Source: an uncultured Candidatus Saccharibacteria bacterium (GTDB lineage Bacteria; Patescibacteriota; Minisyncoccia; Phycocordibacterales; UBA918). Taken from it: a stretch of DNA of 64,000 nucleotides. The position numbers were made by a program, and so were the translations under genes. The DNA lies in NCBI GenBank assembly GCA_964425625.1, contig CAYRMI010000004.1, positions 5,444 through 69,443 of the forward strand. Direction: 5' to 3'. The notes beneath the pieces were generated by a model. The model made no database searches. It was not told the origin of the DNA and worked only from the letters and a program-made list of their open reading frames with translations. Positions 10,442 through 63,742 of this stretch are shown here, one piece after another. Numbering within the stretch: position 1 is the stretch's first letter; each line of letters opens with the position of its first letter.

Positions 10442-10900
10442 ATGAGAAAAAGCTCAGAGAAATTTGTGATGTTCAAATTGGGCGCGAATACCGTCGCCTT
10501 ACGGGCGGAAGATGTAAGGTATCGGATAGATTGGCAGCTACCCATTACCACAATCGAGAATACTCCCCCCTACGTCCTTGGACGGACGATACTTTGTGCT
10601 GAGAAGGAAGTTGTCGTGCAAGATTTAGAGCGTCGCTTCTTTCCCTGTGCTTGCCTACCTACTCGGACGCTTACGCTTCTGGTTTGCTTGCCAGATCAAA
10701 GTCTGGCCGGCTTTATGGTCGATTATGACTGGGTGAGTGTAATCGAAATAGAGAAGCCTATGCGATATGGACCACTACCAGGCAACAATCCGCTCGATTC
10801 CTTTGTTGAAAGCATGGTTGTCTGGCGCGATAAGTTGCTGGGGGACAGCAACAAGTGTCTTTGGCTCTTAGATCCGCAAAAGCTAGCCCATATCAACTGA
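10442..10900 (+). CDS. CheW-like domain protein
   Basis: KFVMFKLGANTVALRAEDVRYRIDWQLPITTIENTPPYVLGRTILCAEKEVVVQDLERRF aligns with E. coli CheW [71 protein letters not shown] lies upstream. Confidence 0.45.
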   Translation: MRKSSEKFVMFKLGANTVALRAEDVRYRIDWQLPITTIENTPPYVLGRTILCAEKEVVVQDLERRFFPCACLPTRTLTLLVCLPDQSLAGFMVDYDWVSVIEIEKPMRYGPLPGNNPLDSFVESMVVWRDKLLGDSNKCLWLLDPQKLAHIN

Positions 10901-12943: not shown

Positions 12944-13966
12944 TTATTTTTGTAAGGGGTGGAATTTGTGATGAGTGTCTTCGGCGTAGCGGTCTGAGGC
13001 ATGGACGTAGCGGGTGGTTGTCTCTAATGATTCGTGACCAAGGAGAATTTGGATAGCTGCGGGGTTGGCGCCTTGCTCAGCTAGGTAGGTAGCGTAACCA
13101 TGGCGGAGGGAGTGAGCACTGGTGGGGACGATAATACCAAGTAGTTCGCGGTAGCGTTTAATTTTTGACTGGAGGTAATTAGGGGAGATGTGCTTTTTCT
13201 TGTCGGTGGCATTAGCCCCTCTCTTCGCTACGAATAAGTAGGGAAGCTCATCATCACGCAGTTTTAGGTATTCACCGATGTGATTTTGGGCTCGCTCAGT
13301 TAAATAAATGAAACGTTGTTTTTTACCTTTACCCTCGATGAAGATCTTTCCGGTTTGATCAATCTGATTGCGACGGAGGTTGATGAGTTCGGAGATACGC
13401 ATACCACTGGCAAACAGTGTCTCGAGCATGGCGCGATTACGCAGGGCGACAAATTTATTTCTTTCATACTGCATAGGGGACTCAATCAACTTTACTAATT
13501 CTTCCATCTCAGAAATCTGCGGGTGGCGCTTCTCGCGTCGTAGGAGTTTGATGACACTGGGATCGACGGGTACGTCGTAGTCCATGTCGATGAGGTAGGT
13601 TAGGTAACGACGTAGTGAGGTGAGGTGGCGATTGATAGTACCGCTGGTCAGTTTTTGGTTGGATTCTTGGTTGGCAGCGGTTTTCCGGTCAGAGGAATTT
13701 AGGTACGCCTTGTATTGTTCGATGGTTCTTTTGGTTACCTTACTAAAGAGTAGGGAAGAGAGGTCGTTCTTAAGAAAATTGGCAAAGGTCTCCAAGTCGC
13801 GTTCGTAGTTGTATAAAGTTTCCCCGGAATAATTGTTGGCTTGGATATGTAATAAAAAATCATCGAGCGCCGGTAGGAGATCGGTGGAATCATTTTTATT
13901 TTTAGTAGTGGAATTATTTTTTCGCATATGACTACGGTGGGGAGTAGCTTCCCACATACTTAACAT
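12944..13966 (-). CDS. Tyrosine recombinase (XerC/XerD-like, phage-integrase family)
   Basis: Catalytic C-terminus LRHGYATYLAEQGANPAAIQILLGHESLETTTRYVH (HxxR ... Y). The N-terminal core-binding region LDDFLLHIQANNYSGETLYNYERDLETF is Xer-like. The true start may be the internal M at 13927. Confidence 0.8.
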   Translation of the reverse strand: MLSMWEATPHRSHMRKNNSTTKNKNDSTDLLPALDDFLLHIQANNYSGETLYNYERDLETFANFLKNDLSSLLFSKVTKRTIEQYKAYLNSSDRKTAANQESNQKLTSGTINRHLTSLRRYLTYLIDMDYDVPVDPSVIKLLRREKRHPQISEMEELVKLIESPMQYERNKFVALRNRAMLETLFASGMRISELINLRRNQIDQTGKIFIEGKGKKQRFIYLTERAQNHIGEYLKLRDDELPYLFVAKRGANATDKKKHISPNYLQSKIKRYRELLGIIVPTSAHSLRHGYATYLAEQGANPAAIQILLGHESLETTTRYVHASDRYAEDTHHKFHPLQK

Positions 13967-20204: not shown

Positions 20205-20435
20205 AAAAATATTAAGGTTTTAGGGTCTCCATTGCCCCTAAACACTCATCGCCATGTTGCCTTCTCTTCTGAAGTAAATTTTTGCATAAATCAAGCAGTA
20301 GTTCTGCTGGTGCAATTGTACCATCCACCAGTTTTTACAACGTACGACAGAAAATTTTTTCAATGGACAATCGTTAATAATCATGTAATAATACTAAAGC
20401 AGGCAAATTTACCTGTTTTTTTGGGTGAGGAAAAA

Positions 20436-21122
20436 ATGCACTTGATCAAAAAGGCGCTCGTCGCCATTTCTTTGTTCTTCGCGGTCTTCGGCCTCGCTCA
20501 TGCGGCGCCATCGTACTGCAACAATAGAGTGCCTGGCGACAATCCACTGAAGAACGACAGTTCACCGGTGCTGTCGACCAGTGACATGACCTACAACAAC
20601 AAGTCGGCCAATGACTGCTACGGTCATGTCGCCAATGACAACGACACCGTCAGTGACATCAACGCTCTGGCTTGGGGAAACGGCTGGCTCTTTGCTGCTC
20701 GAGATAACATCGGTAGCAGGGACAGAAGCAACACCGTCCTCGGCATTGCCTGGAACATCATTGCCTCTGAAGGCGATGAAGGGAGCTGGACCCTCACCGG
20801 CGTCGATAGGAATGGGACAAACCCAGCCAACCTCGGCGACACTTTCGACTTCGTCGGCGTGCTCAAAGGAGGCAACGGTTGGGCGGCCTACCTGTTTGAT
20901 AATGTCGTGTTCGATGGCAGCGACGGCGGCACTTACGCCATCGAGTTCTTCAACAAGGGTGGAAAGATACCAGACCTCTCACACCTCTCGATCTACGCTC
21001 GTGAAGGGGGCAAACCAACCAACGACGTGCCCGAGCCGGGCACGCTCGCTCTCGCTGGCTTCGCTCTTCTCGGCCTTGCGCTGACGGGTCGTCGTCAACG
21101 CCAACAGCCGCGCCTCGGCTAA
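20436..21122 (+). CDS. PEP-CTERM sorting-signal secreted protein (GC-rich gene)
   Basis: RBS GAGGAAAAAATG. Signal peptide MHLIKKALVAISLFFAVFGLAHA. The C-terminus VPEPGTLALAGFALLGLALTGRRQRQQPRLG is a PEP motif plus TM helix plus Arg-rich tail. The larger track ORF 20232..21122 is trimmed to ATG 20436. Confidence 0.6.
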   Translation: MHLIKKALVAISLFFAVFGLAHAAPSYCNNRVPGDNPLKNDSSPVLSTSDMTYNNKSANDCYGHVANDNDTVSDINALAWGNGWLFAARDNIGSRDRSNTVLGIAWNIIASEGDEGSWTLTGVDRNGTNPANLGDTFDFVGVLKGGNGWAAYLFDNVVFDGSDGGTYAIEFFNKGGKIPDLSHLSIYAREGGKPTNDVPEPGTLALAGFALLGLALTGRRQRQQPRLG

Positions 21123-31927: not shown

Positions 31928-34231
31928 TCACACATCAATCTTACAAACAAACAGTCCCAGAATCTTGAACTCGTCGTCTGCGGTCAATATTCTAATTTTA
32001 TGCTCCGGATTGGTCGACTTTGGAATAAGAATTAAGCCGTCTTTTTCTACTTTTATCTGCTTAAGGGTTGCGTCATCCCCTATTAGCACCACCGCGTTTC
32101 CACTAGTTGCGTTTAAGTTCTTCTGACACAAAATTATATCCCCATCATTTATACCAAGTTGATTCATTGAATCCCCTCGAGTATGGAGTGCAAAGTACTT
32201 AGCACCAGGCTTTATTAGCCACCTCGGTACTTTGATAGTTTCGTCACTAGTCGAGTCCGCGAGCATTAATTCACCACAACCAACAGAGTCGTACAGTGGT
32301 AGCTCAACCATATCCTCTTGATATGGTGAAATGATTTCATCAGGTTCACTGGTACTTTTGTTCGTCTTGAATGAGTCGTTACCCAGCATTCCTCTAAAAT
32401 AATTTTCAGTCTCCTTATCACAGAAATATACATAACAGCCTTTCTGACCTCTGGTCATGAGAGTCCGGTATGTATTCTTGATGATTAAATCTAACTGCTT
32501 TCGTACAGCTTCTTCATTTCCTTCTTTTGCCATCTTCTTCCAACCATGGATGGATTTATCTGTACTCGCTCTAGCTTCCGGCACTGATATAATCTTACCT
32601 TCTCGAACAACTAGATCAGGACCGATAATTACACCAACGTAATCTACTTCTAGCCCTTGGCTAGTATGGATGCAACCGACTTCAGACACTGACTCTGGTT
32701 GAACAATCCAAGCTTGGCCATCCTCATCTAGATTCCAAGTGGCTCGATAGTTATCAATAACAATATCTTTAAGAATTGGTTTCTTTTTACTTATCCATTT
32801 CCAACAATAGCCTGCCAACATGCGAGCTTTATTCTTCTCTTTATTTTTCTCCTTTATTGTGTCGTGCAATCTCTGTGGGTTATCAAAAATTTGAAAATCA
32901 TAATTAATTCCCTCCAGGGTATCGTTAGCTGTGTCGCGTATTTGTAGTACTTCATCCAACCACGCCAAGTAACCATTTGATCCATTGCAGCGAAATTGTG
33001 ATTCGAGTTGCATGAGCGTTATTTCTGTGCCTTGCGCTTTTGCGTGAGCGGTAATTTCCTCCACGCTACCAATATCTTTGAGTGTTACTTTTTGGTCTTC
33101 ATCGACAAAGAAAATACTAAACTTTGAAGCATTGATTATTTCTTTCACTTGATTCTCGCCAAGATGACTGAACATACCTGACTTAGCATTGAGCCTATGT
33201 GCTTCATCAACAATTAGCGCATCGTACATATCCTCTTCAGCATTATGAAAAGAGCCTGAGCCACTAAACATGTTTGAAATGTGGGATTTTTTGAAGGTTC
33301 CAGTTAGCTTGATTTCATATACTTCACGAGGAGCTGAATTTCGAGTAACATATTGCGCAACAAGCGACTCCTTGGTTAGATTAACTAATAGATTAATAGC
33401 TAAGACTGATTTACCAGTACCTGGACCGCCTTGTACAATAAGCACGTTTTTGTTTGTAATTGATGACTTGCGAGCAAGTTGTAGCGCGGTTTCGTAGACC
33501 ACCTTTTGATCATCAATCATAACAAACTCTTCATTACCTTTGAGCATGGAAGAGAGTTGGTCTGCAAGACCTTTAGAAGGTCTTATCTTTCCGTGATCAA
33601 TGCGATACATGATTTGGTTTTTGTCACCATGTCTAACATGTTGCTTAATAAAATCACGTAACTTAATTGCGTCAGGTTTAAGAAAGATTGGAGCCTTTTC
33701 AATATATTCACTATAAAAATCGTGACTGATCACTGAATCAGGTTCGTAATTGTGTAAATAGGCACATGGATAAAGCTGGATACACTCCTCTTCTACCGTC
33801 GCATTAAAATCTTCTAAAAGTCTTTTATATGACCAAGCTTGATACGAAGGATGAGACGTCTCTTGTTCACCGTGCTTGAAACGAGTAACCACTACAGCGT
33901 CTTTGTCCGTAAGTTCGGCTTGTGTCCATTGTTTTAATTCAATCAAAATAGCAGTATCTTGATTCTGATTATCGCGTCCAGTAATAATAAAATCAACGCG
34001 CTTAGAAGATTGTGGTATATGATACTCAATAGCTACACCAGCATCAGCTGGTATCTCTGTATCTGAAAGCACTCGATCCATGTATTGTAGCGAGTTAGTC
34101 CATGACATGACCTCAGAGTGCCCGGTACTTCGACCAGTGACTTCTTTGTATGTCTCAAGAATAATATTTCCTATGTCATTGGACATGACGTCGTTCTGAA
34201 ATTGTTCTTTCGAGGCCGAGTAGACAATCAT
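31928..34231 (-). CDS. Multidomain protein: N-terminal PD-(D/E)XK nuclease, DUF2075-type SF1 ATPase/helicase (Nhi/Schlafen-like), C-terminal LexA/UmuD-type S24 autopeptidase domain
   Basis: Nuclease region: VDFIITGRDNQNQDTAILIELKQW. ATPase: VLIVQGGPGTGKSVLAINLL (Walker A) and ALIVDEAHRL (Walker B). DUF2075-like core follows. S24 region: LPLYDSVGCGELMLADS aligns with the LexA cleavage region LPLVGRVAAGEPLLAQQ and the UmuD Cys-Gly site. GDSM (Ser nucleophile) and GINDGDIIL ... ATLKQIKV (catalytic Lys) are also present. Confidence 0.7.
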   Translation of the reverse strand: MIVYSASKEQFQNDVMSNDIGNIILETYKEVTGRSTGHSEVMSWTNSLQYMDRVLSDTEIPADAGVAIEYHIPQSSKRVDFIITGRDNQNQDTAILIELKQWTQAELTDKDAVVVTRFKHGEQETSHPSYQAWSYKRLLEDFNATVEEECIQLYPCAYLHNYEPDSVISHDFYSEYIEKAPIFLKPDAIKLRDFIKQHVRHGDKNQIMYRIDHGKIRPSKGLADQLSSMLKGNEEFVMIDDQKVVYETALQLARKSSITNKNVLIVQGGPGTGKSVLAINLLVNLTKESLVAQYVTRNSAPREVYEIKLTGTFKKSHISNMFSGSGSFHNAEEDMYDALIVDEAHRLNAKSGMFSHLGENQVKEIINASKFSIFFVDEDQKVTLKDIGSVEEITAHAKAQGTEITLMQLESQFRCNGSNGYLAWLDEVLQIRDTANDTLEGINYDFQIFDNPQRLHDTIKEKNKEKNKARMLAGYCWKWISKKKPILKDIVIDNYRATWNLDEDGQAWIVQPESVSEVGCIHTSQGLEVDYVGVIIGPDLVVREGKIISVPEARASTDKSIHGWKKMAKEGNEEAVRKQLDLIIKNTYRTLMTRGQKGCYVYFCDKETENYFRGMLGNDSFKTNKSTSEPDEIISPYQEDMVELPLYDSVGCGELMLADSTSDETIKVPRWLIKPGAKYFALHTRGDSMNQLGINDGDIILCQKNLNATSGNAVVLIGDDATLKQIKVEKDGLILIPKSTNPEHKIRILTADDEFKILGLFVCKIDV

Positions 34232-34233
34232 AA

Positions 34234-34578
34234 CTACAGCTCGTTATATTTTGTAGCTACGCCTTTTGCCTTTTCGACTGGGTACTTCTGTTCATTCTTA
34301 TCCATCTTCCGACCAAGAGCATCTATTAAGTCAATGTCGTAGTGGTTTGCTAGCATTATGATCCAGTACAAAACGTCTGCCAGCTCATCGCGAACGTTAT
34401 CCTCTTTACCTTTTGCTACCTGATTATCTTTTGTCCATTGAAATAGCTCAAGCACTTCTGATGCTTCTAGTTGGAGTGAAAGTGCTAGATTTTTTGGGTC
34501 ATGGAATTGCGCCCAGTCTCGTTCAAGATTAAACTTCTTAATACGTGCAGTTACTCTATTTAAGTCAGTTTGATTCAT
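34234..34578 (-). CDS. MazG-like nucleoside triphosphate pyrophosphohydrolase (all-alpha NTP-PPase)
   Basis: ERDWAQFHDPKNLALSLQLEASEVLELFQW ... NVRDELADVLYWIIMLANHYDIDL carries the EExxE/ExxD metal-binding helices of the MazG/YpjD family. Stop overlaps the start of 31928..34231 (ATGA), consistent with translational coupling. Confidence 0.65.
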   Translation of the reverse strand: MNQTDLNRVTARIKKFNLERDWAQFHDPKNLALSLQLEASEVLELFQWTKDNQVAKGKEDNVRDELADVLYWIIMLANHYDIDLIDALGRKMDKNEQKYPVEKAKGVATKYNEL

Positions 34579-34619
34579 GGTTTATACTAAAATGTAACAT
34601 TTTAAAGCTTAATCCTCAA

Positions 34620-34766
34620 TTGATCATAAGGAATTCCCTAATCAGATACAGCGTAGCGAGGTTTTTCAGGATAAGGAGCGGGATGCCGAGCTGGAAGTAC
34701 CAGCGCTTTGTTTTGTGCCAGAAGATAAGCATGTGACATAGACGCCGACACTGCCGGAGATGGTAG
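34620..34766 (-). pseudogene. Degraded duplicate of the 3' end of the DUF1294 gene. First copy of a roughly 145-bp direct repeat; second copy at 35369-35505.
   Basis: About 85% nucleotide identity to 35369-35505. A 1-nt deletion (ATGTCACATGC versus ACGCCGGGATGC) breaks the DUF1294 reading frame. Confidence 0.55.
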
Positions 34767-34771
34767 TCAAA

Positions 34772-35203
34772 CTAATACAGAAAATCCCAGACAGAAACAA
34801 CTAGAATCGCGATAAGGACAATAAGGAAAATATATCCTGTCCACCAAAGTCCCTGATGAATACTTTGTTTAATTGTAAGTGGTTCGGTTTCTACTGGTTC
34901 TTTGATTATAGAGAAGTCGTCAACTTCACTTTGAAAGATGACTTCTGGTTCGGCTGGTTCTTTGTGTCGGCTTTTGTAATAAATCAAATAAGTAATTAGA
35001 CAAAATGAACTAAAGATAATGCCAAAGACAGGCCAAGCATAAAAGAATGTTTCGTTGTCTACAAAAAAGACCGGAATGAGGGAAAAGGCAATGAGAAATA
35101 ATCCAAAGGTAATGTATACCAACAATGGACGAAGCCACTCATGCCAAATTGCCTGGTTGGTATCGTAGAGAGCTTGATTGAGATGACGGAGAAAGTTTTT
35201 CAC
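34772..35203 (-). CDS. Hypothetical membrane protein (3 TM)
   Basis: 143-aa ORF with LLVYITFGLFLIAFSLIPVFFV, WPVFGIIFSSFCLITYLIYY and GYIFLIVLIAILVVSVW. Lies between the two direct-repeat copies. Confidence 0.4.
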   Translation of the reverse strand: MKNFLRHLNQALYDTNQAIWHEWLRPLLVYITFGLFLIAFSLIPVFFVDNETFFYAWPVFGIIFSSFCLITYLIYYKSRHKEPAEPEVIFQSEVDDFSIIKEPVETEPLTIKQSIHQGLWWTGYIFLIVLIAILVVSVWDFLY

Positions 35204-35359
35204 TTGTATAGATAATAGAAGCTTAATTATATAATAAACAATTAACTGAAACTATTTCTTCACTTATTGAATAGAGACTTAAGAGCAATTCCATTCCATT
35301 TACTTACTGGCTCACTACTTAGAGCCCTTTTACCCAAGAATATAAGTACTATCTGGTAC

Positions 35360-35644
35360 TCATAGTAGTAATTCCCTGAGCAGATACAGCGTAGCAAGGT
35401 TTTGCAAGATAAGGAGCGGGATACCGAGCTGGAAGTACCAGCTCTTTGTCTTATGCCGGAAGATAAGCATCCCGGCGTACACGCCGACACTCCCCCCGAT
35501 GGTAGCGATGAAGAAGATCAGTCCTTCGGGGATACGGTGACTGTGTTCGCTGCGGGTAGACCGCCGTTTGTCATTGGCCATGACTAGAAAGGTAATGATG
35601 TTTATCACTGCCAGAGCGCCGATGATAATATGTTCGGTGGTCAT
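35360..35644 (-). CDS. DUF1294 family small membrane protein
   Basis: ANDKRRSTRSEHSHRIPEGLIFFIATIGGSVGVYAGMLIFRHKTKSWYF matches the DUF1294 consensus DKRxAxRxxxRIPExxLxxLxLLGGWxGAxxAMxxFRHKTxKxxF. Confidence 0.55.
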   Translation of the reverse strand: MTTEHIIIGALAVINIITFLVMANDKRRSTRSEHSHRIPEGLIFFIATIGGSVGVYAGMLIFRHKTKSWYFQLGIPLLILQNLATLYLLRELLL

Positions 35645-35662
35645 GTTAAGTTTGCATCGATT

Positions 35663-36565
35663 TTATTCATTACCAAGCTTTTGTAATGACTGTAGTCTAC
35701 TGTACCAGTCAACTGGAAATCCCATATTAGATACATCAATACTGTGTTCGACTATAAGTTGATTTAACTTTTCCAGCCATGAAGAAGTTGGATTGACTTC
35801 ATTTAAGATTATTTGAAGCACAATCAGATGGTTATAAAGATGATTATTTTTTGTAAAAAACTTAATAAATTTCCGGTGATCCATGCGCGGAGTAAATACT
35901 AGTTCGCGATTCCATAGTCGGCTATGATGGGCACAATTATTTCGTAACACAGATAGAGCATGCATCCAACTCATAACGAATTGCTCGTCAGAGGAAAAGG
36001 TTCGCGCTATAAGGTTTTTGTACTCGCGCTTCAATGATTTCGAAAACTTTACCGTCTGCCCGAATGATAGTATCTCAACCATAGCCCAGATGGGTGGCAA
36101 TGTAGGGTCACTGTATTTTTGCGCATAATGCAGGATACTAATTTCTCTACTATGATTAACTTCATCCATAAACATCTGCTGTATTTCACTATAAAGAAAT
36201 TTATCCTTGAATAACTCTATTGCTTGGTGGGGATGAGATTTATTAGTCTCAACTGAAAGCATATACGTGACCCTTGCCTTGAAAGATTTTTCCACTCTCT
36301 CTAATAAATCTAGCAGCAGAAAGCGGAGCTTATTATCAAAAGTATAAATCTTAATAACATCAGAAAAAGTTGTCCCCGCTCGGAATACGTCGTCTACCTG
36401 AAAAAATTTAAAGTAGATTGAAAGATGATAGTAATTTACATTTTTTAGCCAATATCGCAATTCAGCTTCGTCATCAATTACCAATCCTCGCTCACGAAGA
36501 CGATTCACTTGCTCGTCAATTGATAGTGGAGGTTTAGTATATGTTAACGGTATGTTCTCACTCAT
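35663..36565 (-). CDS. Abi_2 family abortive-infection protein (AbiD/AbiF-like)
   Basis: LSIDEQVNRLRERGLVIDDEAELRYWLKNVNYYHLSIY, FDNKLRFLLLDLLERVEKSFKARVTYML and WMHALSVLRNNCAHHSRLWNR are characteristic Abi_2 blocks. Start taken at MSENIPLTYTKPP (M8 of track ORF 35663..36586). Confidence 0.8.
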   Translation of the reverse strand: MSENIPLTYTKPPLSIDEQVNRLRERGLVIDDEAELRYWLKNVNYYHLSIYFKFFQVDDVFRAGTTFSDVIKIYTFDNKLRFLLLDLLERVEKSFKARVTYMLSVETNKSHPHQAIELFKDKFLYSEIQQMFMDEVNHSREISILHYAQKYSDPTLPPIWAMVEILSFGQTVKFSKSLKREYKNLIARTFSSDEQFVMSWMHALSVLRNNCAHHSRLWNRELVFTPRMDHRKFIKFFTKNNHLYNHLIVLQIILNEVNPTSSWLEKLNQLIVEHSIDVSNMGFPVDWYSRLQSLQKLGNE

Positions 36566-36835
36566 AAACTTATGATATTTTACCATCTTTATTCTGTTGA
36601 CTACATAGGTTGCAATTTACAATTTTGGTAGTAAAGTGTATATATCAACACCCGCCGCGCCTCTGCTTGCAAGCGAACCCGGCGGGTTTGTGTATCTACT
36701 ACTTTGCATGACAATATTAAAGTCAAATATATATTGTTTGATTAAGAAAAAAGGGTTATCGAATGTCTAATCGATAACCTCTTTTTTGATTTTATATTTC
36801 CTAAATTTAGTGAATTATTATTAGGTAAAATTTAT

Positions 36836-37828: not shown

Positions 37829-37850
37829 AGGTTAAAGGTTGGTTTAGTTA

Positions 37851-38000
37851 AATAAAAACAATCTCAGACGGAAAGAGATTGTTTTTACACAGTGAATCTT
37901 TCCCTTGCGGGCTGGATGAAGCACTTTGCCATTGGCAAGTTGCTGGACGACTTAGTGGGCCAGGACCCTATTCGTCTCTCTTGATTCGTATGAGATTGTC
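37851..38000 (-). ncRNA. SAM-I (S-box) riboswitch with intrinsic terminator in the metK leader
   Basis: Minus-strand leader reads CAUACGAAUCAAGAGAGACGAAUAGGGUCCUGGCCCACUAAGUCGUCCAGCAACUUGCCAAUGGCAAAGUGCUUCAUCCAGCCCGCAAGGGAAAGAUUCAC. This matches S-box blocks AUCNAGAGNGG..GAGGGANNGGCCC..UGA..CC..GCAACC, GGUGCNAANNCC and GAANGAU. It is followed by terminator AACAAUCUC-UUUCCGUCU-GAGAUUGUU plus UUUUAUUU, 40 nt before the metK ATG. An upstream GACAAUCUCA can pair with the terminator 3' strand as an alternative structure. Confidence 0.7.
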
Positions 38001-38050
38001 AAAGGATATAACTGTGTGGTTTGGGTTTTGGTTACCAGCTTTTATTCTGT

Positions 38051-38110
38051 TCACGATTATAGCAAGTATAATCGTGAAAAATGTCAAAAAATCGTGCTTT
38101 TTCACGATTA
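38051..38110. promoter_or_regulatory. Pair of inverted repeats sharing the half-site AATCGTGA around the metK promoter -10 (TATAAT), and the rhodanese-gene terminator
   Basis: + strand TCACGATTATA-GCAAG-TATAATCGTGA has 11-bp perfect arms. AAATCGTG-CTTTTT-CACGATTT is an 8-bp stem followed, on the minus strand, by a T-run, so it is the terminator of the rhodanese gene 38206..38478. Minus-strand TTGACA and TATAAT hexamers overlap the first palindrome. Confidence 0.45.
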
Positions 38111-38205
38111 TGATGGGCTTTTAGAGAAGATCCTGGGTGTTTTCATTTAATTGGTTGAGTTTTTTAAATTTATTTCAAATACCGGTTGGCCTTCGTCGAC
38201 CATAG

Positions 38206-51742: not shown

Positions 51743-53140
51743 CTACGCTTTAGGTTTAATAGAGATACCTAGTTCAATCAGTTGCTCGGTAGTGACTTCA
51801 GACGGGGAGTCCATCAGTAAGTCTCTCCCCTCACCGGTTTTAGCAAAGGCGATGATTTCACGGATGTTAGGCTCGTTCTGGAGTAACATAATTAAGCGGT
51901 CAAAACCAAAAGCCAAGCCACCATGGGGTGGTGTGCCAGAAGCAAAAGCCTTTAGCATATGACCAAAGTTATTTTGAATTCGTTCGGCCTCGTAACCCAT
52001 TATTTCAAACACTTTTACTAGGGCTTCAGGGGTGTGATTTCGAATACCTCCGCCACCGATTTCGTAGCCGTTTAGAACCATGTCATACTGCGCCGCCACA
52101 ATGTCTTCAATATCTTTCTTTTCTAGTAAATGCTGATTGTACTCAGGTTTGGGGGCAGAAAAGGGATTGTGAGTAAAGGTCCAGCCTCCAGTCTCGGTCT
52201 TTTCAAAGAAAGGAAAATCAACTACCCAGCAGAAGGCTAGGAGGTTTGGATCAGTTTTATCCTCGCGCAAATCCGGCTTATCACAACCATACTTTTCCAT
52301 CGCTTCTTGATAAGACAGTCGAGGGAATGGCACTTGCTGAATTTTTTTCTCGGGATAAAGAGTCTTCACCAATTCCGTAATCATTCTTTCATTCATAGCC
52401 ATAACATCCTCTTGTTCAACGAAACTCATCTCGATATCAATCTGCGTAAATTCTGGTTGACGATCGCCACGCGTATCTTCATCTCTAAAGCAACGCGCGA
52501 TTTGAAAATACTTTTCAAAGCCAGCGGTCATGAGCAGTTGCTTATATTGTTGGGGTGACTGGGGCAAGGCATAGAATTTTCCTTGGTATAAGCGTGATGG
52601 CACAATATAGTCTCGTGATCCTTCTGGAGTAGATTTGGTCATGTTTGGGGTCTCTACCTCAGTAAATCCCTCATTGGAGTAGAAACTACGGACAAATTGA
52701 ATGGCTTTATGTCGATTGCGAATATTTCGTTGCATGCGTTCACGACGGAGGTCGATATAACGATAACGAAGACGTACTTCTTCATTAATTTCTTTGCCGT
52801 CGCCACTGATATCAAAAGGTGGCGTCTCAGCTTCATTGAGGACAGTTATTTCGAGTATTTCGAGTTCGATATCACCGTTTTGCTTGTTTGCCTGAATCGC
52901 TCGCTCCGGTCGCTCATTTACTTTAGCCTTTACAGCTACTACCCACTCGGGGCGTAGCTTGGAACCCACCTCGTGTGTCTCTACGGCATTGGGGAGGATT
53001 ACACCTTGAACCTTGCCGGTCATATCGCGAAAATCAAAAAAGATAAGCTTGCCTTGGTCGCGCCTGGTATCTACCCAGCCTTTGATCGTCACTTCATTTC
53101 CCACTTCACTTTTGAGTGCACTGATGAGAGTTCGAGTCAT
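51743..53140 (-). CDS. aspS: Aspartyl-tRNA synthetase (short form without GAD insertion; possibly non-discriminating)
   Basis: N-terminal OB fold (VTIKGWVDTRRDQGKLIFFDFRDMTGKVQ). Class II motifs FRDE (motif 2), GGGIRNH and GLAFGFDRLIM (motif 3). Start at MTRTLISAL (track ORF starts at upstream TTG 53170). Confidence 0.9.
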   Translation of the reverse strand: MTRTLISALKSEVGNEVTIKGWVDTRRDQGKLIFFDFRDMTGKVQGVILPNAVETHEVGSKLRPEWVVAVKAKVNERPERAIQANKQNGDIELEILEITVLNEAETPPFDISGDGKEINEEVRLRYRYIDLRRERMQRNIRNRHKAIQFVRSFYSNEGFTEVETPNMTKSTPEGSRDYIVPSRLYQGKFYALPQSPQQYKQLLMTAGFEKYFQIARCFRDEDTRGDRQPEFTQIDIEMSFVEQEDVMAMNERMITELVKTLYPEKKIQQVPFPRLSYQEAMEKYGCDKPDLREDKTDPNLLAFCWVVDFPFFEKTETGGWTFTHNPFSAPKPEYNQHLLEKKDIEDIVAAQYDMVLNGYEIGGGGIRNHTPEALVKVFEIMGYEAERIQNNFGHMLKAFASGTPPHGGLAFGFDRLIMLLQNEPNIREIIAFAKTGEGRDLLMDSPSEVTTEQLIELGISIKPKA

Positions 53141-53149
53141 ATTGTTTGT

Positions 53150-53405
53150 TTGGTTAAATCTGAGAAACAAAAATTGCCTCTACAGATTTTTCTTATTTCC
53201 CCCTAGGGGGAATATTTGATAAATCTGTAGGGGCGGTCTCGATAAGGAGTTATCCGCGGTGCCACCCTACTTCCCTACTCGTATGCGAGTGTGGGCTCTT
53301 TTTGGTGGCGTGTCGTGCCAGACGGAGGTATTTACTGAGCCAATTATAGATAATATGACCGTTCCCACCTCACCTCAGCAGTAGTCAGCTGCGTCAGCGG
53401 TATGG
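53150..53405 (-). ncRNA. T-box riboswitch leader upstream of aspS
   Basis: Minus-strand AGUAGGGUGGCACCGCGG (+ strand 53254-53271) matches the T-box sequence AAUUAGGGUGGNACCGCG. The antiterminator has GUAGGG/CCCUAC and GCGG/CCGC helices flanking the 7-nt bulge UGGCACC. A competing terminator GCCCCUACAGAUUU ... AAAUCUGUAGAGGC is followed by AAUUUUUGUUU, ending about 20 nt before the aspS ATG. Bulge UGGC predicts pairing with a G73 discriminator, consistent with tRNA-Asp. Confidence 0.8.
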
Positions 53406-53407
53406 AG

Positions 53408-61843: not shown

Positions 61844-63742
61844 TTATTTGTTATCGGATTTTTCGTCATTAGTTACTTCCGCGTCTCTGACTATATCTTC
61901 CTTGGGTCCATCTTCTTTTTGTTCTTTAGCCTCTTCGGCAGCAGCCTTTTGCATGATTTCACCAATTTTCTGAAGAGAAGTTGAAAGCAGTTCAGTCTTC
62001 ACTTCAATTTCAGCTTTGTCACCTTTCTCCATAGTTGATTTTAACTCAGACATCTTAGTTTCAATTTCTGTTTTGGTTTCGACGGGAATCTTACCACCAT
62101 GTTCCTTGAGAGCTTTTTCAGCGGTGTAGATAAGTTGTTCGGCTTGGTTTTTGGCTTCAATTACTGCTTTCTTCTGCTCGTCTTCAGTAGCATGATCCTC
62201 AGCCTCCTTCTTCATACGATCGATATCAGCCTCAGTTAGTCCGGAGCTAGCTTCAATCCGGATAGATTGCTCTTTGCCAGTAGCTTTGTCTTTGGCGGTC
62301 ACTTTGAGTACCCCGTTACTATCGACATCAAACACTACTTCGACTTGTGGTACGCCACGTGGAGCTGGTGGAATACCATCGAGTACGAACTTTCCCAGTG
62401 ACTTATTGTCATTGGCCATTGGTCTTTCCCCTTGAACAATATGTATCTCAGTTGAGGTTTGGTTGTCAGCGGCGGTTGAGAAGATTTGTTGCTTCTTGGT
62501 CGGAATATGAGTGTTCTTTTCAATCAACTTGGTGTTTACACCACCCATAGTCTCAATCCCAAGAGAAAGCGGAATAACATCTACCAAAGTAATATCTTGA
62601 ACATCGCCTTGGAAAATACCAGCTTGAATAGCGGCTCCAAGAGCTACCACTTCGTCTGGATTAATTGTCTTGTTTGGCTCTTTACCAAATAATTCTTTCA
62701 CCGCTTGTACAATCGCCGGCATGCGAGTCTGGCCACCAACCATAATCACTTCATCAATGTCTTCCTTCTTTAGACCAGAAGCCTCTAAAGCCCGCTTGGT
62801 GATTTCGATCGATTTATCAATAAACTCATGAGCAAGCTCTTCTAGTTTGGCGCGTGAAAGTTTAATTAGAAGGTGTTTAGGGCCATTTGCATCGTTGGTG
62901 ATAAAGGGAATATTGACCTCGGTCTCGGTCGTTGAAGAGAGTTCTAGCTTAGCTTTTTCGGCGGCTTCATCTAGGCGACCTAAAGCTAGCTTATCGTGAG
63001 ATAGATCAATTCCTTCAGCTTTCTTAAATTCTGCAATTAGATGACGGATAATCGTTTGATCAATATCTCGTCCACCCATATGAGCATCTCCGTCAGTTGA
63101 TTGCACTTCAATCACATCATCACCCACCTCTAGGACTGAAACGTCAAAGGTTCCACCACCAAAGTCGTAGACAACAATCTTCTCATCTTTCTTTTTGTTG
63201 AAACCGTAAGCTAAAGCAGCAGCGGTTGGCTCGTTGATAATACGTTTTACTTCTAGGCCAGCAATTTTTCCAGCATCTTGTGTGGCTTTGCGTTGGGTAT
63301 CATTGAAGTAGGCAGGCACAGTAATAACTGCCTCAGTGATTTTTTCACCAAGCTTGGCTTCGGCATCGGCCTTAAGTTTAGAAAGAATCATAGCCGATAC
63401 TTCTTCTGGTCGGTAATCTTTTCCTCCCATAACAACAATGGCTCCACCATCACTTCCCTTCTTTACTTCATAGGGGACGATTTTCTTATCTTTCTGCACG
63501 GCTTCTTCTTCGTAGGTGTGACCCATGAAGCGCTTGATGCCGTAAATAGTATTGCTGGAATTAGTGACGGCTTGTCGTTTAGCGATTTGTCCGACTAGTC
63601 TTTCATTAGTCTTTGAGATAGCCACAATTGAGGGAGTAGTTCTGGTGCCTTCACTGTTTTCAATAATAGTCGGCTCACCGGCTTCAATGATAGCCATTGC
63701 TGAGTTGGTGGTGCCTAGATCAATACCAAGTATTTTTGCCAT
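61844..63742 (-). CDS. dnaK: Molecular chaperone DnaK (Hsp70)
   Basis: [26 protein letters not shown] and [15 protein letters not shown]-type motifs (here [15 protein letters not shown]). Confidence 0.95.

Follow-up and report, generated by a model that had tools for sequence, protein, structure and literature searches.

A probable SAM-I-type termination riboswitch in the leader of metK from a Patescibacteria genome

What controls metK, the gene for a 330-aa methionine adenosyltransferase, is the question raised by the leader that precedes it in the stretch of 64,000 nt analyzed here (the window, whose positions serve as coordinates throughout). Leader and gene both lie on the minus strand, as do all leader elements described below; the leader runs from 38000 to 37850, and the ATG of the 330-codon metK open reading frame (ORF; 37828–36836) follows 22 nt downstream of its end. 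A first-pass annotation had framed this leader almost exactly, at 37851–38000, and had read it as a SAM-I (S-box) riboswitch, an RNA responsive to S-adenosylmethionine (SAM). The Rfam match, the predicted fold, the conservation among relatives and the terminator presented below all support that reading, and we assign a probability of roughly 0.85 to the leader being a SAM-responsive, SAM-I-type transcription-termination off-switch for metK in a genome of the candidate phyla radiation (CPR)/Patescibacteria.

From 5′ to 3′ the leader consists of GACAAUCUCAUAC, GAAUC, AAGAGAG, ACGAAUAGGGUCCUGGCCCACUAAGUCGUC, CAGCAACUUGCCAAUGGCAAAGUGCU, UCAUCCAG, CCCGCAAGGG, AAA, GAUUC, ACUGUGU, AAAAACAAUCUC, UUUCCGUCU and GAGAUUGUUUUUAUUU. 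Every S-box block quoted in the first-pass annotation is present between 38000 and 37850, and direct sequence reading places AUCAAGAGAG at 37985–37976, AGGGUCCUGGCCC at 37969–37957, CCAGCAAC at 37946–37939, GUGCUUCAUCC at 37924–37914 and GGGAAAGAUUC at 37904–37894. The SAM-I-type aptamer, a four-way junction of helices P1–P4, occupies 37891–37990. P1 is formed as the annotation had proposed, by GAAUC (37987–37983) pairing with GAUUC (37898–37894), and is followed by the junction strand J1/2 AAGAG (37982–37978), which equals the family consensus. P2 (37946–37976) comprises P2a GACGA/UCGUC, an internal loop AUA/ACUAAG, P2b GGG/CCC and a terminal loop UCCUGG, in which the pseudoknot strand CUGG (37960–37963) faces its partner CCAG (37915–37912) in J3/4. 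P3 (37920–37945; CAGCAAC UUGCC AAU GGCAA AGUGCU) has a conserved GCAAC and GUGC core, and P4 (37902–37911) is a 3-bp stem, CCC-GCAA-GGG, that leads into J4/1 AAA.

When we searched a local segment of 501 nt with cmscan, the Rfam family RF00162 matched 37891–37990 (−) over model positions 1–108 with a score of 38.9 bits and an E-value of 2.2e-7. The match that the first-pass annotation had expected exists, yet it falls under the curated gathering score of 44.4 bits. At the gathering threshold a whole-window Rfam scan gave no match to RF00162; in a whole-window scan by E-value the speed filters drop the element, and the local scan recovers it. In the cmscan alignment, the SAM-pocket positions equal the consensus, namely the C-G, U-A and A-U pairs of P1 next to the junction, J1/2 AAGAG, the GCAAC...GUGC of P3 and a purine J4/1, and the U-A pair closing J3/4 is intact; the role of these nucleotides in SAM binding comes from published structures. 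Score is lost at three outer P1 positions that do not pair, at the short P3 and P4, and at the P2 internal loop. RNAfold, given the aptamer alone, predicted the P1–P4 four-way junction that the annotation had named as a check, and RNAalifold independently predicted P1–P4 together with the terminator from 12 homologues. A longer P1, extended in the window by CAUA and UGUG, was rejected, as this extension is not conserved in relatives.

These homologues are the window leader and 11 further leaders (L081, L084, L088, L089, L090, L096–L099, L101 and L102), collected from contigs of close MetK relatives and from one metagenome pattern scan for the variant P2; the latter gave four matches, of which L096 and L097 are real and L094 and L095 are chance. 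All 11 related leaders sit upstream of a compact metK in Parcubacteria-type CPR bacteria, the encoded MetK is 73–90% identical to the window protein where the gene is complete, and the flanking genes differ at every locus. Conservation extends from the promoter through the U-tract, with 81–93% leader identity among the 12 members, whereas metK third codon positions at identical residues are 32–63% identical, near saturation; the leader RNA is thus constrained far more than adjacent neutral sites.

An alignment produced by MAFFT from the sub-family mixed with distant CPR aptamers gave a broken structure and was replaced by a sub-family-only alignment and covariance model. In the 12-member alignment, 98.3% of the cells belonging to P1–P4, the pseudoknot and the terminator were paired, compared with 38–51% in a control in which the 3′ partners were slid by 1–3 columns. 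Five pairs changed on both sides, including two in the pseudoknot, and the observed covariation score was unmatched by any shuffle. Covariation is seen in the pseudoknot, in P3 and in the terminator: all four pseudoknot pairs are kept in every member, with CUGG/CCAG replaced by CUGA/UCAG in L096 and by UUGG/CCAA in L097, and in P3 the A-U of 11 members at alignment columns 58/92 is replaced by G-C in L096. The GAAUC/GAUUC pairing of P1 and the pocket nucleotides are invariant (12/12). The sub-family covariance model identified 46 elements directly upstream of metK in CPR and Clostridia/Bacilli loci, and the alignment of these aptamers (the 12 members and 34 other SAM-I aptamers) had 97.7% of cells paired and compensatory changes in 21 of 27 pairs, figures that lean towards structure since the alignment was fitted to the model. 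A GTDB scan with a MetK peptide pattern returned, among the matches listed, relatives of at most 55% identity, which served as the comparison set.

The expression platform begins with a putative promoter, for which a −35-like element TGGTAAC (38031–38037) and a −10-like box TTATAT (38006–38011), both conserved in relatives, are the candidates. TG(T/C)AAC(C/T) occurs in 8 of the 12 leaders and the variant TGTAAAACC in L101; the element is absent from L096, L097 and L102, and L084 is cut off upstream. The spacing between the two elements is about 17–19 nt, and sequence conservation ends upstream of the −35-like element. Relatives have TTATAT, TTACAA or TATAAT as their −10-like box, with a perfect TATAAT in L096 and L097, and the box always ends 5–6 nt before (G/A)ACAATCTC. 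Because this box ends 5–6 nt upstream of the 5′ strand of the leader, transcription would start at about 38000.

At the other end of the leader, an intrinsic terminator (37850–37886) is composed of AAAAACAAUCUC (37886–37875), the loop UUUCCGUCU and GAGAUUGUUUUU, then AUUU, its 3′ part including the U-tract being GAGAUUGUUUUUAUUU (37865–37850). The 9-bp hairpin and U-tract described in the first-pass annotation are present, and the hairpin reaches 12 bp with an A-U extension. Hairpin and directly following U-tract are conserved in all members, with 97.9% of terminator cells paired among the 12 and all 5′-strand changes compatible with G.U pairing. A consensus promoter and terminator scan flagged neither the leader promoter nor the leader terminator, and missed the latter because the scan admits loops of up to 8 nt and this one has 9 nt.

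Canonical S-box logic rests on an antiterminator, on P1 as anti-antiterminator and on a terminator (PMC5602112). The aptamer side of such an antiterminator in the window leader is the P4-3′/J4-1/P1-3′ strand GGGAAAGAUU (37904–37895), within which lies the block GGGAAAGA (37904–37897). In all 12 members this strand can pair with the loop and with the end of the terminator's 5′ strand (AAUCUCUUUCC), at energies between −7.6 and −12.7 kcal/mol. The two sides change in correlation (CGGGGG/CUCCUG in L089 versus CGAGGG/CUCUCG in L099), and the pairing forms when folding is predicted for transcripts that end ahead of the terminator 3′ strand. In these models the S-box attenuation architecture is present, with a terminator and an antiterminator that is exclusive with both P1 and the terminator.

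The predicted folding energetics of the leader are bistable. With the aptamer enforced, the remaining leader folds into the terminator, for a total of −43.8 kcal/mol. The unconstrained minimum, at −46.9 kcal/mol, places the 5′ strand, the linker and J1/2 on the terminator loop and 3′ strand and destroys P1 and the pocket, and the aptamer and the 5′ leader helix together reach only −33.7 kcal/mol. The minimum fold is of this ON type in 8 of the 12 members and of the OFF type, aptamer plus terminator, in the other 4.

From these alternatives we infer the following course of events. Transcription would start near 38000, as the conserved −35/−10 pair suggests. Abundant SAM would bind the four-way-junction aptamer (37990–37891) and lock the 5-bp P1, J1/2 and J4/1, leaving the terminator 5′ strand free, so that the hairpin at 37886–37854 would form before the U-tract and transcription would stop 22 nt short of the metK start codon. 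With little SAM present, P1 and the core would be unlocked, and the purine-rich GGGAAAGAUU or the AAGAGAG of J1/2 could capture the loop together with the pyrimidine-rich end of the terminator's 5′ strand, which is the classical antiterminator. As an addition particular to the sub-family, the first 13–15 nt of the transcript (GACAAUCUCAUACG) might capture the 3′ part of the loop and the terminator 3′ strand. With its halves held apart in this way, the terminator would fail at low SAM and metK would be transcribed.

Is the aptamer able to bind SAM at all? The standard P2 kink-turn of SAM-I aptamers, in which G.A and A.G pairs follow a 3-nt bulge, is absent from this sub-family. The P2 internal loop keeps the 3 × 6 size of a kink-turn, with AUA as its non-bulged strand and RCUAAG as its bulged one, the exceptions for the latter being CCAAAU in L098 and CAAAG in L099. 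Kink-turn position 1b is A and position 2n is U in 12/12 members, in place of G; in the window these are A37952 and U37970. Among 34 comparison SAM-I aptamers, 30 have GA opposite NNNGA; of the exceptions, L005 has UA opposite GGUGA (U at 2n only), L049 has UA opposite AUUAA, and L013 and L059 are unaligned there. A shifted register that would restore the kink-turn was ruled out, as the 3′ strand CUAAGU contains no GA and CCAAAU of L098 contains no G at all.

Several of these properties weigh against a functional SAM-I switch. The window element scores below the RF00162 gathering score, the scorable members of the sub-family are all sub-threshold (38.9, 37.5, 37.2 and 33.9 bits), and eight members have no RF00162 listing at E ≤ 0.01. 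P1 is only 5 bp long. Since 1b is A and 2n is U, neither kink-turn G.A pair can form, and in the Thermoanaerobacter tengcongensis riboswitch disruption of the kink-turn by A1nC abolishes SAM binding, while a pk-turn substitution retains binding that is 1000-fold weaker (PMC3672288). A decayed aptamer that no longer binds SAM, with the hairpin acting as a constitutive attenuator or a plain 5′ UTR (untranslated region) structure, would account for the sub-threshold score and the lost kink-turn consensus. We nevertheless regard decay as very improbable, given that the leader is much better conserved than metK synonymous sites, that every pocket nucleotide is intact, that the pseudoknot, which needs the kink in order to come together, covaries, and that the variant loop is itself conserved in 12/12 members, its UA/AA form recurring in the unrelated L049.

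Published work on altered kinks bears on the same point. The G2nA kink folds only inside the riboswitch (PMC3672288), an A.U at 2b.2n is found in Thermus Kt-23, which folds (PMC4316175), and riboswitch tertiary contacts can stabilize non-standard kinks (PMC3651934, PMC3672288). Because altered kinks fold in context and the pseudoknot covaries, a non-standard working kink held by that pseudoknot is plausible. The unrelated L049 element (128–285) precedes a 359-aa metK on a contig labelled Gammaproteobacteria, has a large P3 insertion and carries the same UA/AA variant (GGGUAGAG...CUCAUUAACCC); this recurrence suggests that the variant kink arose more than once.

A working aptamer might also serve another end, recognizing a different ligand (for example S-adenosylhomocysteine (SAH) or a SAM analogue), binding SAM much more weakly, or acting at the level of translation or of mRNA stability in place of termination. 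A shift in affinity could follow from the altered P2 kink and from the shortness of P1, P3 and P4, and no Shine-Dalgarno-like sequence was seen between the terminator and the ATG. We give little credence to such departures: the pocket nucleotides are those of SAM-I, the gene is the classical SAM-I target metK, the hairpin and immediate U-tract are conserved in all members, and no leader element overlaps the start codon region.

The 5′ leader strand GACAAUCUCAUAC (37988–38000) is an addition to the classical platform. Its segment GACAAUCUC (38000–37992) repeats the terminator 5′ strand exactly and is for that reason complementary to the terminator 3′ strand; the full strand is also complementary to the 3′ part of the terminator loop. 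The first-pass annotation had noticed a 5′ segment able to pair with the terminator 3′ strand, and this was borne out at −12.7 kcal/mol in the window (z = −4.7 versus shuffles) and in all 12 members, in which the 5′ strand and linker pair with the 3′ part of the loop and the 3′ strand at −10.7 to −13.0 kcal/mol (z = −3.9 to −5.5). When the full leader is folded, the duplex is part of the minimum-free-energy structure in 8/12. Linker and loop change together, as AUACG/CGUCU, UAACG/CGUUA, UAACG/UGUUA, UAAAG/CUUUA, UAGCG/CGUUA and UACG/CGUA; in the window the linker includes ACG at 37990–37988 and the loop CGU at 37870–37868.

The leader could instead be an ordinary S-box with the classical antiterminator only, in which the 5′ strand (ACAAUCUC) has no regulatory role, being either untranscribed or an element of the promoter or of the initial transcribed region. 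ACAAY follows the −10-like box by 5–6 nt in nearly all CPR SAM-I leaders, whatever their terminator sequence (L002–L014, 8–12 nt upstream of P1), and mostly without significant pairing: in 11 of 12 such leaders, complementarity between the 5′ strand and downstream sequence gave z of −1.8 to +1.8, with hints in L013 and L014 only. Pairing of the 5′ strand with the terminator was accordingly rejected as a general trait of CPR SAM-I leaders. The classical antiterminator is present and covarying in 12/12 members, and the aptamer with the terminator is already the minimum fold in 4. Further points on this side, which also count against the mechanism as we propose it, are that the 9-bp core between the 5′ strand and the terminator 3′ strand is almost invariant and so represents conservation, not covariation; that the linker/loop co-changes comprise few independent events and are confounded by the ability of these loop bases to pair instead with the P4 side of the classical antiterminator; and that, since ACAAY occurs elsewhere without complementarity, part of the 5′ strand may be conserved for promoter or initiation function. 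As a separate observation, the terminator 5′ strand of L013 likewise starts with ACAAC.

A promoter element alone fits other features of the sub-family less well. Nine consecutive bases are identical to the terminator 5′ strand in 9 of 12 members, at the z-scores given above; L084, L088 and L096 have one or two differences, which still permit G.U pairing with the 3′ strand. Despite substitutions and an indel, the linker and the terminator loop remain complementary, and terminator loops normally vary freely, yet CGU/UGU is kept in 10/12. In L088 the terminator 5′ strand has drifted to G.U pairs, and its 5′ leader is still perfectly complementary. We consider an ordinary S-box with an inert 5′ strand a serious contender, though with clearly less than an even chance, and put a real regulatory role of the 5′ strand, as judged from these modeled pairings, at about even odds.

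Whose switch would this be? The first-pass annotation had seen Firmicutes-like use of regulatory RNA; the SAM-I-type switch is real in sequence and predicted fold, and the host belongs to the CPR, not to the Firmicutes. Taxon-named proteins among the best 120 MetK homologues are all from CPR/Patescibacteria (Parcubacteria, Taylorbacteria, Nomurabacteria, Falkowbacteria and Campbellbacteria), and the product of aspS in the window falls in the same taxonomic neighborhood; as the neighbors of both MetK and aspartyl-tRNA synthetase (AspRS) are CPR, we assign the host, an ultrasmall bacterium, to the Parcubacteria/Paceibacteria type. MetK has the domains PF00438, PF02772 and PF02773, all above their cut-offs, and scores 298.6 bits against the equivalog TIGR01034, under its cut-off of 309.4, a shortfall that fits the loss of about 40–55 residues in loops. 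The motifs HPDK, GAGDQG, GGGxFSGKD and DRSAAY are invariant in the alignment, and the protein aligns end to end with solved MetKs (377–417 aa), being shorter through several loop deletions and a missing short C-terminal tail. The annotation was right that MetK is compact, at 330 aa; that size is not unusual, since the best 120 homologues (67–90% identity) range from 294 to 340 aa, the CPR norm.

SAM-I control of metK seems common in the CPR, because 12 of 13 other CPR metK loci scanned carry an RF00162 element, 8 of them above threshold at 55–68 bits. At a Taylorbacteria relative with a MetK 73% identical (L092/L093, 2907–3001), the 93-nt gap upstream of metK has no riboswitch, which indicates that the switch was gained or lost within the compact-MetK CPR group.

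The composition of metK raises the related question of its origin. A GC-rich stretch coincides with leader and gene: metK has a GC content of 0.561 and a GC content at third codon positions (GC3) of 0.647, compared with means of 0.425 and 0.398 for the 57 ORFs of the window, and is the highest of these in both (z = 3.2 and 3.4). The first-pass annotation had called metK GC-rich, correctly, at a value of 0.58 that proved too high, and the GC3 comparison that it had proposed singles out the same gene. At 11 of 11 loci metK is more GC-rich than its flanks, by 1–16 points, and its GC3 varies among loci from 0.335 to 0.674 without tracking them. High GC3 as a mark of high expression was considered and is unsupported, with values of 0.368 for DnaK (61844–63742) and 0.443 for DnaJ. 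Other GC3-rich ORFs of the window encode a PEP-CTERM protein (20232–21122), a phage-type integrase (12944–13966, −) and a CheW-like protein (10442–10900).

Horizontal acquisition of metK is possible, and transfer of a promoter–riboswitch–metK cassette among CPR genomes is plausible because synteny is absent, the neighbors are of defense or mobile type and assemblies often break at the leader. Recent transfer is not demonstrated, as AspRS and MetK have diverged from their respective nearest relatives to a similar degree and synonymous sites are saturated even against the closest GC-rich relative (L098, 0.63). Beside metK in the window (31928–36586, −) are genes for an Abi_2 protein and for a 767-aa fusion of a Schlafen-group-3 helicase with an S24 peptidase; this helicase–S24 fusion recurs about 0.8 kb from metK in L089 (4788–7002), and a serine recombinase (L090, 4967–6409), a Bro-N protein (L098, 2626–3477) and a Fic protein (L099, 2726–3625) adjoin metK elsewhere. 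The contigs of L082, L083, L084 and L087 end 100–256 nt upstream of metK, in or just upstream of the leader. Such assembly breaks are expected if leader and metK are shared by co-occurring strains or genomes with different flanks.

Taken at its fullest, our proposal is of a natural SAM-I sub-family, so far found in Parcubacteria-type CPR only, that combines an A-rich loop in place of the kink-turn, a 5′ decoy strand with a toehold in the terminator loop, and a promoter–riboswitch–metK cassette travelling between CPR genomes of different base composition. At low SAM, each terminator strand would then be sequestered by a partner of its own. We advance this combination tentatively and think it rather unlikely to hold in all its parts.

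Among the remaining features of the window, a T-box-like leader (53226–53406, −) stands upstream of aspS (51743–53170, −), whose product is a compact AspRS of 465–475 aa without the bacterial insertion domain. A T-box had been named in the first-pass annotation; the element exists, at only 32.9 bits against an RF00230 gathering score of 93, with the motif AAGUAGGGUGGCACCGCG intact and Stem I almost absent, and may be a reduced CPR variant of the T-box. Between the rhodanese gene and the metK promoter, ATAATCGTGAA occurs in three exact copies (38050–38060, −; 38101–38111, −; 38068–38078, +), and the copies (38050–38111) form perfect inverted repeats of 12 nt and 14 nt. The first arm pair, AAUCGUG...CACGAUU, with its T-run could be the rhodanese terminator, and the remaining repeats could be an operator or a structured element; these repeats are not conserved in the leaders of relatives. 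Downstream of metK there is a terminator-like hairpin with a T-run (36754–36779, −). Over window positions 1–64000, no tRNA gene and no Rfam family at the gathering threshold was found.

What would this leader add? That metK is subject to SAM feedback by way of an S-box-type switch is textbook knowledge, and this basic picture is unchanged. Default Rfam annotation misses the sub-family because its scores fall under the gathering threshold, with the consequence that riboswitch use in the little-studied CPR is under-counted. A natural SAM-I RNA that is conserved yet has no kink-turn G.A core offers a test case for how far tertiary contacts can replace an autonomous kink, and a transcript 5′ end that duplicates a terminator strand would give the classical S-box antiterminator a second lock.

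The predicted switch works like a known system, from which it departs in its standing relative to the Rfam threshold, in its kink-turn and in a conserved extra strand of the expression platform. Compared with the SAM-I riboswitches of RF00162 (the Bacillus subtilis yitJ, metI and metK leaders and the T. tengcongensis metF aptamer), it has the same P1–P4 junction, pocket, pseudoknot between the P2 loop and J3/4, and U-A pair closing J3/4–J4/1, and the same downstream terminator, antiterminator between P1-3′ and terminator-5′ strands, and control of a SAM/methionine gene (PMC5602112). It differs from them in its sub-threshold score, its 3 × 6 loop without G.A pairs, its 5-bp P1, its short P3 and P4 and its additional 5′ strand. 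Other CPR SAM-I elements (Saccharibacteria, Moraniibacteria and other Parcubacteria) share with it the gene, the position, the terminator-type platform and an ACAAY near the presumed start; in contrast to the window element, nearly all of them have a GA/GA kink-turn, 8/12 are above threshold, and most lack complementarity between 5′ strand and terminator. The engineered SAM-I kinks G2nA and pk-turn likewise lack the standard G.A/A.G core in an intact SAM-I scaffold, and tertiary contacts can fold kinks of this sort within it (PMC3672288, PMC4316175). Those are laboratory constructs, whereas the variant described here is natural and conserved in its sub-family, and its AUA/RCUAAG matches neither tested sequence. 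A related SAM pocket is also found in SAM-IV and SAM-I/IV (clan CL00012). Neither of these families is known to have a P2 kink-turn. Unlike them, the window RNA keeps P4 inside the junction and a pseudoknot of SAM-I type, and its best match within the clan is RF00162.

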